From the UHGV virus genome UHGV-1858859: a DNA stretch of 44,515 nt. One strand, 5' to 3'. How positions within the stretch are numbered: position 1 is the first letter of the stretch; each line of letters begins with the position of its first letter. The translations under genes were made by a program, and so were the position numbers. Shown here one piece after another: positions 18,060 to 40,530 of the stretch. The stretch is from a virus. A model generated the notes under the pieces. That model was not told the DNA's origin, made no database searches, and saw nothing but the letters and a program-made list of their open reading frames with translations.

Positions 18060-18293
18060 TTATTCCAGGTCTTCTAAAGTAGCGGTCATTCCGCGAACTT
18101 CAGCAATGGCACTATATTTCCCGCCGACATTTTTCACGACACCGGATTTAACCAGCACCTTCAACGACCCTTCAATAATGGCGGAACTATAGTACCTAAA
18201 ATAACTGCGGCGCAAGTCCATAACGCTGCACGAACCTTTTTTACGTGTTAAGGAAACTACCGCCGTAAATACGCGTGACTGGAACTCGGTCAT
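18060..18293 (-). CDS. hypothetical protein
   Basis: 77-aa ORF; its ATG overlaps the stop of the upstream HTH gene (ATGA). Confidence 0.5.
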   Translation of the reverse strand: MTEFQSRVFTAVVSLTRKKGSCSVMDLRRSYFRYYSSAIIEGSLKVLVKSGVVKNVGGKYSAIAEVRGMTATLEDLE

Positions 18294-18460
18294 TTTACAT
18301 TCTCCTTAATCCACGCTTCCACTTTCTCCGGGTCAAACGTGCCAGGCTGGCGACGGCCCATAATGCGGATACAACAATCCGGGAACTTCCCGCTCTTTAA
18401 CCAGTTATTCAGCGTGCGACGGGTAACCCCGATACGCTCAGCCACCTCATTCTGTGTCAT
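18290..18460 (-). CDS. AlpA/Xis-like HTH DNA-binding protein (56 aa)
   Basis: MTQNEVAERIGVTRRTLNNWLKSGKFPD... matches the AlpA/excisionase-like HTH pattern; GAGGG RBS; below track cutoff. Confidence 0.5.
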   Translation of the reverse strand: MTQNEVAERIGVTRRTLNNWLKSGKFPDCCIRIMGRRQPGTFDPEKVEAWIKENVK

Positions 18461-18492
18461 TCTTAAACCCTCATTATCAGTTAACGAAACCG

Positions 18493-18521
18493 AGTATACA
18501 TTGCGAATAATGGGAAATCAA
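18493..18521 (-). promoter_or_regulatory. candidate sigma70-like promoter TTGATT-N17-TATACT
   Basis: Minus-strand reading ttgatt tcccattattcgcaatg tatact, about 30 nt upstream of the AlpA-like gene. Confidence 0.4.
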
Positions 18522-18892
18522 ACATAATTGCACCTATTGACATTATGAAAATCTTCGTTTAAGGTGCTTCTATATCTTAGTTACTTTGATTCCTGTTCAC
18601 CTTGTAAGAATGCTTAACCCGTGCGTTAAGCAAAGGGTTAAGCAGCAGGCTTACTGAACACGAGAATTATTGTAACTTTCCTTCCTAAGTATCTCCGGTT
18701 GCCCTGGGCAAGCTCTATTCTCATCGGCGGCATATCTCTTAAGTATCTGATTTTCTTAATGTGCCGTAGATTCGCAACCGTAAAAATGTAACGATTATTG
18801 GGCAGGCTTAGGGCCTGCCCTTTAGTTACCAAGTAATAAGAATAAAGGCACAACTCTACCTGAAGAATCACAACGGCAACGTAACTATTTTC

Positions 18893-18921
18893 TTGCACAC
18901 CCCAACATAATAGGATACTAT
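18893..18921 (+). promoter_or_regulatory. sigma70-like promoter TTGCAC-N17-TACTAT with embedded palindrome
   Basis: ttgcac accccaacataatagga tactat; motif ATAATAG-gata-CTATTCA at 18907-18924; a 36-bp block is repeated as an exact inverted copy at 40388-40423. Confidence 0.65.
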
Positions 18922-18946
18922 TCACTTATCGAAACGAGACAGATGA

Positions 18947-19147
18947 GTGAGGGTTATGTTTAAGAAGGGTCAGTTGGTGAAAACGATGTACGGTAGCTTA
19001 GGTATTATTGAAAAGAAATCGACAGTGTACCGAAGTTCTTATGTCGTTAGCTTACTCAGGGAGCACGGGTTAAGTTCCACGGCGTATTACCGAGAGTATG
19101 AAATGAAGCTCATCGGCAACAATTTTAAATTCAAAGGGGCGAAGTGA
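18947..19147 (+). CDS. hypothetical early protein
   Basis: First ORF downstream of the rightward promoter; start ambiguous (GTG 18947 or ATG 18956). Confidence 0.4.
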   Translation: MRVMFKKGQLVKTMYGSLGIIEKKSTVYRSSYVVSLLREHGLSSTAYYREYEMKLIGNNFKFKGAK

Positions 19148-20160: not shown

Positions 20161-20193
20161 TGTTCAATAGTTTGGGATTTTACTGAGTGACTT

Positions 20194-20226
20194 ACGCTGC
20201 TACACGGCAGCGTATCATTTTTCTCA
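20194..20226 (+). terminator. rho-independent terminator
   Basis: acgctgc-tacacg-gcagcgt hairpin followed by atcatttttctcattttt. Confidence 0.5.
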
Positions 20227-20462: not shown

Positions 20463-20491
20463 TTGCACACTTGGATAGAATAGGCTACTAT
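20463..20491 (+). promoter_or_regulatory. sigma70-like promoter TTGCAC-N17-TACTAT with motif copy
   Basis: ttgcac acttggatagaataggc tactat; CTATTCA at 20488-20494; followed by leader cgaacgagaggagagacagaag-ATG. Confidence 0.65.
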
Positions 20492-20522
20492 TCATTTACA
20501 CGAACGAGAGGAGAGACAGAAG

Positions 20523-28721: not shown

Positions 28722-28744
28722 AGCCCCGAAAGGGGCTTTCTTAT
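28722..28744 (+). terminator. stem-loop / partial terminator after the portal gene
   Basis: agcccc-gaaa-ggggct hairpin followed by ttcttat. Confidence 0.45.
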
Positions 28745-30983: not shown

Positions 30984-31014
30984 AAGGCCCCATAATGGGG
31001 CCTTAGTTTTATTT
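30984..31014. terminator. bidirectional rho-independent terminator
   Basis: aaggcccc-ataat-ggggcctt hairpin with T-runs on both strands (agttttattt on plus, ttttatcatc on minus); lies between convergent genes. Confidence 0.6.
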
Positions 31015-31530: not shown

Positions 31531-31556
31531 TTCTCATCTCCTGTTTAAGTTAACTG

Positions 31557-31585
31557 AATAGTACCCTATTATGTTGGTGCGCGCA
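31557..31585 (-). promoter_or_regulatory. sigma70-like promoter TTGCGC-N17-TACTAT with embedded palindrome
   Basis: Minus-strand reading ttgcgc gcaccaacataataggg tactat, with ATAATAG-ggta-CTATTCA. Confidence 0.6.
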
Positions 31586-31861
31586 AACTATTTATTTACG
31601 TATTCCAGTTATTCCACTCAATTGTAAACGTTGGAATAAACTATTCGAATAGTTGACTTTTCACTGAAAATATGATAAGCTCCACCTGAGCTTGTGAAGT
31701 ATGAGCAAGCGACCGCGGCGCGGGCAGGTAACGGAGCGGGACGTAAGTCCTGAGTGTAGTTACGCTGACGCGTTCGGAAGGGCCATACTCTATTGCTTGT
31801 GTAAAAAGTAACTGGTTTACTGAGATTACGCCGTTTCTATGTTTAAATGATAAGGACTAGC

Positions 31862-31888
31862 GCCCCGCTTTAAGGCGGGGCTTTACTT
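31862..31888 (+). terminator. stem-loop with short T-run just upstream of the Rz-like gene
   Basis: gccccgc-tttaag-gcggggc followed by tttactt; function unclear (terminator or attenuator-like). Confidence 0.35.
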
Positions 31889-31905
31889 ATTGAGAAAGGG
31901 GAAAC

Positions 31906-32292
31906 ATGAATCTTAAAGCAACTGTCGTAGCCGGAGCATGTTTCGTCGTCCTAGCCTACGCACACGGCATCTATCAATACCGCAGCGGCTGGGGTGAAGG
32001 CCGTGCTAATCTCGTTTCGCAGCAACAGCAGAAAGCACAGGCTGAGCTGACGAAGAAAACACAACGGCAGCAGCAGGATGAATCAAAGGCCGCCGCCGCT
32101 GACAACGAAGGCAAGACGAAATCAGAGGTGATTACCCGTGAAGTCGTTAAGTACATTAAAACGCCTGGCCGCAGCGTGTGCACTTTCGACGATGCTCGCG
32201 TCCTGCTCAAGTCCCACGCCGTTGCCAACGCCAATTCCATCCCCGGATACGACGATGATGCAGCCGCCGTGCAAACTGGCACCGCCAAGTAG
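31906..32292 (+). CDS. i-spanin (Rz-like)
   Basis: N-terminal transmembrane segment (ATVVAGACFVVLAYA), Gln/Lys-rich coiled-coil region, overlapping lipoprotein ORF in another frame; AAGGGGA RBS. Confidence 0.6.
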   Translation: MNLKATVVAGACFVVLAYAHGIYQYRSGWGEGRANLVSQQQQKAQAELTKKTQRQQQDESKAAAADNEGKTKSEVITREVVKYIKTPGRSVCTFDDARVLLKSHAVANANSIPGYDDDAAAVQTGTAK

Positions 32293-34252: not shown

Positions 34253-34281
34253 GAGAGGGACTTCGGTCCCTCTTTTCATTT
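34253..34281 (+). terminator. rho-independent terminator after the major capsid gene
   Basis: gagaggga-cttcg-gtccctct hairpin followed by tttcattt. Confidence 0.5.
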
Positions 34282-38740: not shown

Positions 38741-38766
38741 AAGGCCCCTTTCGGGGCCTTTTTCTT
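38741..38766. terminator. rho-independent terminator (near-identical copy of the one at 6141)
   Basis: aaggcccc-tttc-ggggcctt followed by tttctt; also terminates the convergent minus-strand cassette. Confidence 0.6.
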
Positions 38767-40353: not shown

Positions 40354-40394
40354 GGGGTAGCTCCTGTTTGAGTTAACATTGTTGGTGTAAGTGA

Positions 40395-40423
40395 ATAGTA
40401 TCCTATTATGTTGGGGTGTGCAA
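40395..40423 (-). promoter_or_regulatory. sigma70-like promoter TTGCAC-N17-TACTAT, exact inverted copy of the 18893 promoter block
   Basis: Minus-strand reading cttgcacaccccaacataataggatactattcactt is identical over 36 nt to plus strand 18892-18927. Confidence 0.65.
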
Positions 40424-40530
40424 GTAATGTGTTAGAATTATTTTGCGCCTAGTGTCGCACACGAAAAGCGGGTGGTTCCCGTCTGGCGCATTAACCTTAA
40501 CCAGTAACCTCTTAACCAAAGGATTAAAGA

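Follow-up and report, generated by a model that had tools for sequence, protein, structure and literature searches.

A candidate transcription control hub with a conserved, predicted ~255-nt structured non-coding RNA in Kagunavirus

A 486-bp gap (18461-18946) separates the replication genes from the early genes of an E. coli phage of the genus Kagunavirus (Guernseyvirinae), the source of the 44,515-nt stretch of DNA analysed here (the window). Judged from its sequence, this gap looks like the phage's transcription control hub, with three predicted promoters and a conserved, folded non-coding RNA of ~255 nt. Two of the promoters, P_left and P1, lie back-to-back in the left 110 bp; the ~255-nt unit follows, and P2 lies 65 nt 3' of the unit's terminator-like hairpin. 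A first-pass annotation had picked out divergent promoters and several inverted and direct repeats here; what it missed is that the inverted repeats belong together, as helices of a single conserved structured RNA unit and its terminator-like hairpin. The RNA is unannotated in any database or genome record, our literature search found nothing on the hub region, and the sole Kagunavirus transcriptome paper is at gene-level resolution.

Promoters and conservation of the hub

We matched the gap to 448 phage records, 301 of which cover at least 80% of the region. Salmonella phages of the genus Jerseyvirus match at 75-80% identity, on par with a coding gene (spanin, ~75%). One match labelled as a plasmid is confined to the P2-proximal end of the query, and a search for host mimicry in 5,426 E. 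coli genomes returned no similarity to the hub RNA. Conservation is modular: relatives bear other 5' classes and other 3' modules, and even phages that share a host can have strongly different hub classes. The exchange point between 5' classes and 3' modules is the junction AAGTWWCTGAT, which in the window reads AAGUAUCUGAU on the plus strand, is part of the central hairpin segment described below, and is common to other hub classes. The terminator-bearing 3' module hardly differs between the phages of E. coli and those of Salmonella. Cornellvirus is without the large hub.

The hub borders a T7-like replication set comprising a helicase-primase, a family-A polymerase and a gp2.5-like SSB. The gene next door encodes a 56-aa HTH_17 (excisionase-like) regulator, whose gene belongs to the early set of a related phage. 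No RNA polymerase gene is annotated in the complete Bas73 and Sciku records, and we found no tRNA or tmRNA.

All three putative promoters combine near-consensus sigma-70 hexamers with a 17-nt spacer, and hexamers and spacing are kept across classes and genera. On the minus strand, a promoter scan placed P_left at 18521..18493 (-35 TTGATT, 18521..18516; 17-nt spacer; -10 TATACT, 18498..18493), from where it would drive the operon of the HTH regulator, a 77-aa product and the helicase-primase. Its AGTATAC and AATGGGAAATCAA elements are invariant across all class-A relatives while the spacer diverges, and class-B relatives carry the analogue TTGCTT-17-TATACT. P1, found by pattern match, faces right at 18537-18565 (TTGACA, 18537-42; 17-nt spacer; TAAGGT, 18560-65), with a predicted start near A18572. 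The P1 -10 fits the consensus at three of six positions, retaining the key T1, A2 and T6. Across 25 of 25 class-A sequences CACCTATTGACATT and TAAG[G/T]T are kept and spacers diverge, and the counterpart in class-B relatives and at a second locus of the window is TTGACT-17-TAAGCT. This retention of hexamers and spacing over diverging spacers, in P_left as in the rightward promoters, bears out the earlier proposal of a hub between divergent promoters. A further plus-strand candidate flagged by the scan, TTGCGA-16-CATAAT (18501-28), is not kept in Salmonella relatives and was discarded.

P2 (18893-18921, plus strand; TTGCAC, 18893-98; 17-nt spacer; TACTAT, 18916-21) is positioned to drive the early ORFs, whose ATG is at 18956. 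A 37-nt exact copy of P2 lies at 40424..40388 (minus), with further copies at 31585..31555 (minus) and 20463-20494 (plus); the genome carries at least four near-identical P2-type promoters. Overlapping the -10 of P2 is the palindrome AATAG-GATA-CTATT (18909-18922, plus), whose pattern AATAG-N4-CTATT has 12 genomic copies where 1.27 would be expected. Regulator binding in the hub, as the first-pass annotation had supposed, is plausible; as candidate operator, though, this palindrome ranks ahead of the inverted repeats listed there. Directly 5' of P2, the block GAAGAATCACAACGGCAACGTAACTATTTTC (18863-18892, plus) holds 94-98% identity in class A, B and C hubs, even in those with a wholly different sequence on its left side, and may serve as an UP element or as a site for a regulator. 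We also considered the tandem CAACG-N-CAACG 5' of P2 as an operator (18 copies genome-wide against 4.6 expected); because the copies lie mostly inside coding sequence, they are not a specific operator set.

A predicted structured RNA unit and its counterpart at a second locus

The class-A hub RNA, as predicted from the P1 start to the terminator-like hairpin, spans 18572-18827 on the plus strand. Folding of the plus strand (18568-18830) gave -88.6 kcal/mol against -61.3 ± 4.6 in shuffles (z = -5.9; 0 of 200 as good), and z = -3.05 on the minus strand. The repeats noted in the first pass all exist, with coordinates a few bases off, and the pattern goes beyond chance. Most of the unit's 5' part forms SL1 (18579-18677), a 99-nt irregular hairpin of five helices with a variable tip: helix P1 (AGUUAC/GUAACU), helix P2 (UGAUUC/GAAUUA), helix P3 (UGUUCA/UGAACA), helix P4 (GUAAG/CUUAC) and helix P5 (UGCUUAACCC/GGGUUAAGCA). 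Folded independently, 24 of 24 class-A relatives, which include phages of both E. coli and Salmonella, give an identical helix order.

Sequence changes within SL1 follow its pairing. Helix P2 becomes UAAGUUU/AAACUUA in Salmonella phages, helix P3 carries a compensated 1-nt insertion (GUUUCA/UGAAAC), and helix P4 shows three pair types at two positions. Double-sided changes fall in helices P2, P4 and P5, and nine pairs carry them. With sequences aligned by fitting to the structure model, and against shuffles that ignore the relatedness of the sequences, paired cells reach 86.4% (80.8 ± 0.5% in shuffles), double-change cells 70 (29.8) and the covariation score 0.185 (0.120), none of which was reached in 500 shuffles; slid controls gave 30-51% paired. 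These comparisons draw on 28 of 448 hub sequences and, for the second locus described below, ~10 of 181. A shuffle-beating fold, compensatory changes and the lack of a conserved frame on either strand identify the unit, as modelled, as a conserved structured RNA. A leader peptide search likewise yielded no conserved plus-strand small ORF in the hub. In E. coli phages SL1 is clearly strand-asymmetric (13 of 13), which is not so in Salmonella phages; as proof of RNA, asymmetry holds for class B and E. coli class A and fails for Salmonella class A, and we set it aside.

Relatives also revise one repeat within SL1. The pairing gcttaac/gttaagc described earlier is real (18611-18618 with 18625-18632; I20), but relatives conserve a longer alternative, I7, in which 18611-18620 pairs with 18635-18644 at 10 of 10 positions. 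Four relatives (L009-L012) carry UGUUUAACCC/GGGUUAAACA, which keeps I7 and breaks I20. The two copies of gttaagca (18625-32 and 18637-44), correctly listed as a direct repeat, are therefore alternative 3' partners of one 5' arm.

Downstream of SL1 lies a CU-rich linker, UUCCUUCCUAAGUAUCUCCGG (18678-18698, plus), predicted to be single-stranded and unpaired in both minimum-energy and centroid folds. Within it, CCTTCCTWAGTATCT is nearly invariant across both genera. The linker also contains the first copy of UAAGUAUCU (18686-94), the taagtatct repeat of the earlier reading; the second copy (18740-48) spans stem and loop of the central hairpin. SL2 (UUGCC-CUG-GGCAA, plus) follows at 18699-18711, rather than at the 18705-18720 first given for this inverted repeat, and is 92.9% paired in relatives, with one-sided changes only. 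Directly 3' of SL2 is the motif GCUCUAUU (18712-19, plus); in every class and genus examined, motifs of the type [G/C]UCUAUU or GCUAUAUU stand 3' of the long hairpin. The central hairpin (18725-18766, plus), obtained from a consensus fold of 19 sequences, has CGGCG/UGCCG closing UUAAG/CUUAA.

The unit ends in an intrinsic-terminator-like hairpin, GGGCAGGCU-UAG-GGCCUGCCC (18800-18827), followed by UUUAGUU and recovered on the plus strand only in our terminator scan. Its core, gggcaggc...gcctgccc at 18800-18820 ahead of TTTAGTT, is the third inverted repeat of the first pass. The stem has nine pairs, seven of them G-C, with a top pair that covaries C-G / U-A in relatives; the U-tract behind it is short and broken up. 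Relatives with another 3' module have other GC-rich hairpins there, and the U-tract after these is weaker or absent. In four Salmonella relatives (L016, L017, L033 and L040) nothing resembling a terminator hairpin separates P1 from the first ORF, and therefore the RNA there must be a 5' leader. A terminator/antiterminator switch through the 9-nt repeat GCAGGCTTA (18645 and 18802) was rejected, as the two copies do not co-vary in relatives.

Known RNA families did not account for the unit. Across the whole window, Rfam release 15 gave 0 matches at gathering thresholds; the best sub-threshold hits, sbrA (19.3 bits; threshold 45) and Ref55 (19.5; threshold 43), are terminator look-alikes, and a search of both hubs at E-value thresholds gave nothing meaningful.

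The window holds a second unit of similar design at 31653-31890 (plus strand), of class B, with the promoter TTGACT-17-TAAGCT, a ~200-nt structured leader and the terminator GCCCCGC-UUUAA-GGCGGGGC-UUUACUUAUU. It ends 16 nt 5' of the spanin ATG (31906), at the head of the spanin-scaffold-capsid operon, and a promoter scan between the unit and that ATG found none. This second unit is homologous to the class-B RNA found at the HTH hub of other Kagunaviruses, and phage Sciku has one and the same class of RNA at both hubs. One position of its terminator stem shows three pair types, and in 10 of 10 class-B variants the fold of the plus strand beats that of the minus strand by 6-15 kcal/mol. Typical Jerseyviruses also carry a class-B-like leader upstream of the spanin gene, while in one Cornellvirus the resemblance at this locus does not go beyond motifs; the U-tract is absent in the Jerseyvirus and Cornellvirus versions. 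We found no homology between classes A and B: the class-A covariance model recovers 28 class-A loci and 0 class-B loci at E <=1, and the two loci may therefore be analogous rather than homologous. An Arg-rich 36-aa ORF in the second RNA was considered as a leader peptide and dropped: three hub-2 relatives have it cut to 9 aa, and most other class-B copies have a shorter version or no ORF at all.

Candidate functions of the hub RNA

What the RNA does can be narrowed to a few readings, of which a cis-acting structured leader or attenuator is our preferred one, held tentatively at somewhat under an even chance. P_left would send RNA polymerase into the HTH and helicase-primase operon, and P1 would send it rightward into the ~255-nt non-coding stretch. 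We infer that the region is transcribed from P1, and the leader so made would fold into SL1, the CU-rich linker, two small hairpins and the terminator-like hairpin, at which most polymerases from P1 would be expected to stop. Read-through, whether basal, promoted by the leader or mediated by a phage factor, would add P1 transcription to the rightward operon, while P2, with its operator-like palindrome, would separately start the early genes. We favour action in cis because a unit of like design heads the spanin-scaffold-capsid operon, which has no other recognisable promoter; with this placement, such an RNA heads both long rightward operons. Against it, the hub unit has its own terminator and the early genes their own P2, as is classically seen where a small RNA gene stands by itself. 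Nor can regulated termination be what these RNAs do in every phage, since the U-tract is absent at the second locus of Jerseyvirus and Cornellvirus. We scanned 25 products against PHROGs, namely 22 early ORFs, two proteins of the replication side and the spurious ORF discussed below; nearly all matches were to families of unknown function, and no antiterminator of the N, Q or another known type appeared. The leaders of both units contain no canonical boxA.

Nearly as likely as a cis leader is a free-standing RNA acting in trans, a possibility to which we give a little under one chance in three. P1 and the terminator would then delimit a ~255-nt gene for a small RNA, or for a decoy of protein or RNA, in which the linker and the two UAAGUAUCU copies, or the scaffold, bind host or phage RNA or protein, and the tip either sets specificity or is unconstrained. 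The unit's own promoter and terminator suit such a gene, given that a separate P2 serves the downstream genes, as do the conservation of unpaired motifs across genera and the near-identity of the terminator-bearing 3' module in E. coli and Salmonella phages. In antisense RNA systems loops determine specificity, and the combination of a variable tip with a conserved scaffold recalls them. A target, on the other hand, did not emerge: the best complementarities within the phage are 11-12 nt, at chance level (E ~1), changes in the hairpin tip are not mirrored in the match at 19063-74, and E. coli genomes hold no related sequence. The short, interrupted U-tail is atypical for Hfq-dependent small RNAs, some relatives are without the terminator, and the analogous 31.7 kb unit is positioned as a leader.

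A bolder form of the cis leader, which we consider unlikely, is that the hub RNAs constitute a new cis-acting RNA family that reprograms host RNA polymerase, in a put-like or phage-factor-dependent manner, at the head of both long rightward Guernseyvirinae operons, with exchangeable 5' classes and hypervariable tips as specificity modules. If true, this would place a lambdoid-style antitermination timing circuit in strictly lytic therapy phages without a known timing mechanism.

Slightly less probable again is a replication origin, the other role proposed for the hub in the first pass, in which the P1 transcript would serve as primer or activator, or single-stranded DNA hairpins would be recognised by the phage helicase-primase. 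The hub does sit where leftward and rightward gene blocks diverge and adjoins the T7-like replication set, and primer-type origins accommodate a promoter-driven structured RNA of this kind. We ran the GC-skew check suggested for it: the cumulative minimum does lie near 19 kb, at the hub, but it coincides with, and is fully explained by, the switch in gene orientation, and is for that reason not diagnostic. The promoter part (18450-18600) is 30-37% GC, and the promoter pair is the only AT-rich stretch in the hub. Sequence elements of an origin did not materialise. The direct-repeat families have two copies each and form no iterons, the DnaA box (TTWTNCACA) is absent from the hub, and there is no P4-type iteron cluster. 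The P4 origin octamer TGTTCACC, the iteron of the alpha primase-helicase, occurs once in the hub (18594) and in four scattered copies in the window against 1.2 expected; in Salmonella relatives the hub copy becomes TGTTTCAC, its extra U compensated in SL1 helix P3. TWAGTWAC, also tried as an iteron, is likewise neither enriched nor clustered (6 against 5.5 expected), and its hub copies are arms of SL1 helix P1 and of the stem flanking the terminator. An origin also fits poorly with an analogous unit within the structural gene region, with Cornellvirus having no large hub, and with class-B hairpins that are strongly strand-asymmetric, as expected for RNA.

Improbable in our view is a purely DNA-level regulatory region, in which the repeats are operators for the HTH regulator or another protein, the RNA structure is incidental and no functional RNA exists. 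The HTH_17 regulator encoded next door, the strong over-representation of AATAG-N4-CTATT across the -10 of P2-type promoters, and an invariant block at 18863-18892 that could be a binding site would all agree with this. Operators, however, leave unexplained the compensatory changes between arms 20-95 nt apart, as well as the compensated insertion and a helix order kept despite full replacement of helix sequence; SL1 arms are absent at other promoters, and the over-represented palindrome lies outside the structured part.

A genuine small protein gene in the 95-codon minus-strand ORF (18638-18925) has a negligible chance, for although the frame is open in the window, L001, L002, L003, L006 and L011 and is annotated in the Bas73 and NTEC3 GenBank records, its GTG start lies inside P2, it matches no PHROG family, its annotated lengths conflict (Bas73 has 106 aa and NTEC3 has 71 aa, while K1ind1 has no entry for it), and it is spurious, as first suspected, because it is broken in close relatives (in-frame stops or frameshifts in L009, L010, L012 and L014; open but shortened in L008) and absent from every Salmonella relative despite 75-80% DNA identity.

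Kagunavirus and Jerseyvirus are among the most often isolated phages of E. coli and Salmonella (~450 records here) and are used in therapy, biocontrol and synthetic biology. A conserved, modular RNA heading their main operons would offer a concrete, testable handle on the timing of phage gene expression, and genome engineers should not regard the hub as a disposable spacer. For annotation, the 95-aa hub ORF and the 36-aa second-locus ORF, both entered as hypothetical proteins, are probably not genes, which corrects existing records. Since phage leaders and small RNAs are a familiar kind, we regard the finding as useful rather than field-changing, unless antitermination is proved.

Comparison with known systems

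Among short non-coding transcripts of regulatory regions, lambda OOP, P22 Sar and P4 CI RNA invite comparison, and P4 likewise pairs an excisionase-like HTH protein (Vis) with a primase-helicase. Each of these RNAs controls an operon to which it is antisense or from which it is processed, whereas the hub RNA is divergent from the HTH/primase operon and has no detectable antisense target. The RNase III sites and 5' stabilising hairpins of the T7 early leader resemble SL1 as long irregular hairpins with internal loops in an early leader made by host polymerase; T7 sites are intergenic and many, while the hub units have one such hairpin each. ColE1 RNA II, T7 phi1.1A/B and T4 oriF/oriG are promoter-driven structured non-coding RNAs beside replication genes, and in the ColE1 family, as in the hub RNA, the scaffold is conserved and loops vary. 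In contrast to these primer RNAs, the hub has no antisense promoter by our scan, no downstream AT-rich unwinding element and no iterons, and a second copy stands among structural genes.

The nut sites of lambda and rrn share with the hub a hairpin followed by a short conserved single-stranded leader motif, and the first five bases of GCUCUAUU are those of boxA GCUCUUUA. Beyond GCUCU the hub motif differs from boxA, and relatives have ACUAUAUU or GUCUAUUG in its place. We found no boxA (GCUCUUUA or CGCUCUUA) in the leader and no N-like family; the only canonical boxA string (18392) lies upstream of P1 and is therefore not part of the leader.

The HK022 put RNAs, which act in protein-independent processive antitermination, resemble the units in arrangement, being leader stem-loops with no dedicated protein known, present twice per genome at the head of two long operons, with similar architecture and different sequence. 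Put elements are ~70 nt with two stem-loops, whereas the hub has a 99-nt five-helix hairpin and further hairpins and shows no sequence similarity to them; the strong class differences among same-host phages are also hard to square with a fixed docking site on RNA polymerase. The lambda late leader PR'-6S RNA-tR' works by Q antitermination; for the Kagunavirus units we found no Q homologue among the products scanned and no evident conserved -10-like pause element, their leader is highly structured and conserved, and Jerseyvirus and Cornellvirus have versions without the U-tract. In lambda a host-type promoter, a ~200-nt non-coding leader and an intrinsic terminator stand before an operon that begins with lysis and structural genes. 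The predicted layout of the second unit (31653-31890) is like this, and so, with an extra promoter, is that of the hub unit.

Promoters and genomic setting of the hub

The window belongs to an E. coli siphophage of the genus Kagunavirus (Guernseyvirinae), and its hub (the gap at 18461-18946), with flanks, is 97.9% identical to phage vB_VIPECOTPH05A and matched 248 phage records at megablast level. Three minus-strand genes flank it on the left: one for an HTH_17 (excisionase-like) regulator of 56 aa (18290-18460), one for a 77-aa protein with no assigned function, and one for a helicase-primase of 746 aa that contains an AAA_25 domain; in the annotated relative Bas73, more replication genes follow farther leftward. 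Rightward, a long run of small early ORFs gives way to lysis, terminase, portal, and head genes. Given this layout, the hub is the point where the two largest transcription blocks diverge. One Kagunavirus transcriptome paper, at gene level, lists the HTH gene as early.

The left part of the hub (18461-18570) holds a back-to-back pair, P_left (minus strand, TTGATT-17-TATACT) and the P1 promoter (plus strand, TTGACA-17-TAAGGT). Across 25 aligned relatives, their hexamers and 17-bp spacing vary little or not at all, but the spacers are wholly different between the E. coli and Salmonella groups. Relatives with the hub swapped for unrelated sequence again carry leftward TTGCTT-17-TATACT and rightward TTGACT-17-TAAGCT. 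Together with the P2 promoter at the right end (18893-18921, plus strand, TTGCAC-17-TACTAT), this pattern bears out the divergent-promoter hub proposed in the first-pass annotation. P2 lies in a 37-nt exact repeat (18892-18928, and 40388-40424 on the minus strand) with close copies at 31555-31585 (minus) and 20463-20494 (plus), a near-identical promoter kept at four genome places, each ahead of genes.

The palindrome AATAG-N4-CTATT overlaps the -10 of P2, and of P2-type promoters at the sites checked. With at most one mismatch it occurs 12 times in the genome versus 1.27 expected (12978, 15441, 15485, 18909, 20479, 31557, 40394, and five others). No other sequence in the region is as good a candidate operator; its ligand would be a dimeric regulator, possibly the 56-aa HTH protein.

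Around the hub, the first early ORF (18956-19147) has the same RBS and N-terminus (MFKKGQLV) across most relatives, with the remaining protein swapped for unrelated sequence; a recombination boundary lies just within this ORF and its counterparts. Strong terminator-like hairpins stand on the plus strand within the rightward blocks (20193-20214, 28722-28737, 30984-31004, 34253-34274, 38741-38760), for instance directly after the major capsid gene. Because some have no recognisable downstream promoter, read-through must happen at these hairpins. Over 38 nt, at 97%, the P2-proximal end of the hub query also matches CP088689.1, a 44-kb "plasmid" of an E. coli blood isolate that may in truth be the genome of a Kagunavirus, recorded as a plasmid.

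A structured element on the plus strand

The middle of the hub, about 18572-18827, is neither promoter nor gene. Gap identity is 90-98% among E. coli phages and 75-80% in about 330 Salmonella phages, the latter on a par with a coding gene compared across the two genera (spanin, ~75%). The plus strand of 18568-18830 folds at -88.6 kcal/mol against -61.3 +/- 4.6 for shuffled sequences (z = -5.9; none of 200 shuffles did as well), and the minus strand has z = -3.05. The repeats named in the first-pass annotation are all present at slightly shifted coordinates, and this fold and conservation argue that they are not chance. Its three inverted repeats are helix P5 of the hairpin SL1, the small hairpin SL2, and the terminator-like hairpin, and the second of its two gttaagca copies is the conserved 3' arm of helix P5. 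Its idea of a regulator-binding region is plausible, but at the P2 palindrome rather than at the listed inverted repeats, which are helices of the predicted RNA.

SL1 (18579-18677) comprises five helices, and the same 98-110-nt hairpin, with the same helix order and a varying tip, forms in 24/24 non-identical relatives, each folded alone. Helix P1 (AGUUAC/GUAACU in E. coli phages) has a core that never varies, to which Salmonella phages add 1-3 pairs. Helix P2 is UGAUUC/GAAUUA in E. coli phages and UAAGUUU/AAACUUA in Salmonella phages or other variants; in the same order, helix P3 is UGUUCA/UGAACA and GUUUCA/UGAAAC (an extra U balanced by an extra A), helix P4 is GUAAG/CUUAC, GUAAA/UUUAC, or GUAAU/AUUAC and GUGAG/CUUAC or GUGAG/CUCAC, and helix P5 is UGCUUAACCC/GGGUUAAGCA, UGUUUAACCC/GGGUUAAACA, CGCUUAA/UUAAGCG, or CCGCC/GGCGG and CUUAGCG/CGUUAAG. 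On the 3' side of SL1 follow a conserved, unpaired CU-rich linker, SL2 (18699-18711; UUGCC-CUG-GGCAA) and then GCUCUAUU, a central hairpin (18725-18766, plus strand), and a GC-rich hairpin followed by UUUAGUU. The terminator scan picks up this last hairpin on the plus strand alone, and in relatives its top pair changes from C-G to U-A. Judged from motif conservation, transcription would run from the P1 promoter and end at 18827.

RNAalifold on a plain MAFFT alignment found three pair types at two helix P4 positions and a CG/UA swap in helix P2. In addition, we used a covariance model of the complete structure to re-align 28 loci, and took pair counts from the result. Standard pairs filled 86.4% of cells versus 80.8 +/- 0.5 in shuffles, double-change cells numbered 70 versus 29.8 +/- 6.2, and the covariation score was 0.185 versus 0.120, counts to be read with the relatedness of the sequences and the fitting of the alignment to the model in mind. 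None of 500 shuffles reached any of the three values, and sliding partners by 1-3 columns left only 30-51% paired. Counted as pairs that show at least one double change, the figure (9 versus 7.8) is unexceptional by itself. We regard it as well supported that the hub is made up of promoters and a conserved, structured, non-coding plus-strand element, rather than being a gene or a set of operators.

Module exchange and a second unit ahead of the spanin gene

The hub is a mosaic. Its 5' part (promoters and SL1 domain) comes in three or more unrelated classes, including A (the window's), B, and C, which meet the 3' modules at a common junction, AAGTWWCTGAT. E. coli phages carry three alternative 3' modules, each with its own GC-rich hairpin, and Salmonella relatives an additional module, M3; the invariant block GAAGAATCACAACGGCAACGTAACTA and P2 are common to all hubs. 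In the 3' module of class-B relatives (L023, L026, L027, and others), a CTCA/CACT tetranucleotide run of variable length sits just 5' of a GGUGCC-UUCG-GCACC hairpin, about three units longer in L023 than in L027.

Searching the window for P1-like promoters revealed a second non-coding hub at 31531-31905, with a leftward P2-type promoter (31585..31555, minus strand), a rightward promoter (31653-31681, plus strand, TTGACT-17-TAAGCT), a structured plus-strand stretch of ~200 nt 3' of it, and a strong plus-strand terminator (31862-31890) that lies 16 nt short of the spanin start codon (ATG at 31906). The spanin gene is the first of the scaffold, capsid, and tail operon, and the promoter scan found no other rightward promoter before it. 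At least 80% of this hub is covered by 179 phage records, with identity of 90-99% in nearly every one. Over its 5' 150 nt the unit has a homologue in other Kagunaviruses, the class-B hub RNA; phage Sciku has class B at both positions, the first 80 nt identical and the hairpin tip different. Class-B basal stems covary (CGGCGC/GCGUUCG, CGGAGC/GCUUUCG, CGGUGC/GCAUUCG), as do its terminator stems (GCCCCGC/GCGGGGC, GCCCUGC/GCAGGGC, GCCCAGC/GCUGGGC), and the plus strand is more stable than the minus by 6-15 kcal/mol in 10/10 variants. A 36-aa Arg-rich ORF (MSKRPRRGQV..., 31701-31811), a hypothetical protein in two GenBank records (Bas73_0007 and CPT_Sciku_007; L049, L050), is cut to 9 aa in three relatives of the second hub (hz69, SZH-1, K1ind2) and shortened or missing in most other class-B copies, and is therefore probably no gene.

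The class-A covariance model detects no class-B locus, so we treat the classes as analogous units of common design. In both, a promoter of the P1 type comes with a long variable-tipped hairpin, a motif of the [G/C]UCUAUU type, the AAGUWWCUG junction, and a 3' hairpin. A long non-coding leader precedes the spanin gene in all three genera, with class-B similarity shown for Kagunavirus and Jerseyvirus only: typical Jerseyviruses have a class-B-like leader, and one Cornellvirus has a long gap resembling class B at motif level only, both versions with a 3' hairpin lacking a U-tract. No large hub stands beside the Cornellvirus helicase-primase gene; in Shemara (L061, 5198-5318) this gene points the same way as the early ones and the divergent hub spans just ~120 nt, which marks the large class-A hub RNA as specific to Kagunavirus and Jerseyvirus. 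At the second hub's left edge, Salmonella phage celemicas carries a putative tRNA-Ser(tga) (L058, 382-460, minus strand; called by ARAGORN and the GenBank record) that overlaps the tail-protein gene end and terminator; ER1 and Shemara lack it at that position.

Function of the hub RNA and related systems

We lean, tentatively, towards a cis-acting leader or attenuator. The unit at 31.7 kb is positioned such that a leader is the sole reading there, four Salmonella relatives have no terminator between the P1 promoter and the first ORF, and each long rightward operon has one of the two units at its head, which calls to mind lambda PR'-tR' and the paired put or nut sites of lambdoid phages. Against this, P2 renders P1 read-through unnecessary in the window, no known antiterminator was found among 25 products scanned against PHROGs, and the U-tract is weak or missing in many versions. 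A free-standing trans-acting RNA, which would suit an element with its own promoter, its own terminator, and conserved unpaired motifs, is nearly as likely, although a search of the phage for targets and of E. coli genomes for related sequence found none. The replication origin suggested in the first-pass annotation is unlikely: every specific signature tested for is absent from the hub, although its position and GC skew are compatible. More improbable still is a purely DNA-level operator region, which leaves the long-range compensatory changes unexplained. A real 95-codon minus-strand ORF, open in the window and five close relatives, is scarcely credible given in-frame stops or frameshifts in L009, L010, L012, and L014, a shortened frame in L008, no counterpart in any Salmonella relative, and no PHROG family. 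The first-pass annotation had rightly noted that it looks spurious, and GenBank records give it differing lengths or omit it. No conserved plus-strand small ORF was found in the hub among relatives; the region is non-coding.

The hub element matched no Rfam family, is not annotated in the GenBank records inspected, and goes unmentioned in the searchable literature. Were a polymerase-reprogramming function true, the finding would be of high interest. As a candidate nut-type site, the element was rejected on testing for membership. It belongs in kind with phage leader RNAs and small RNAs, and lambda PR'-6S-tR' and the HK022 put elements appear nearest to it in layout; less ordinary are the exchange of 5' classes and 3' modules and the presence of two loci per genome.
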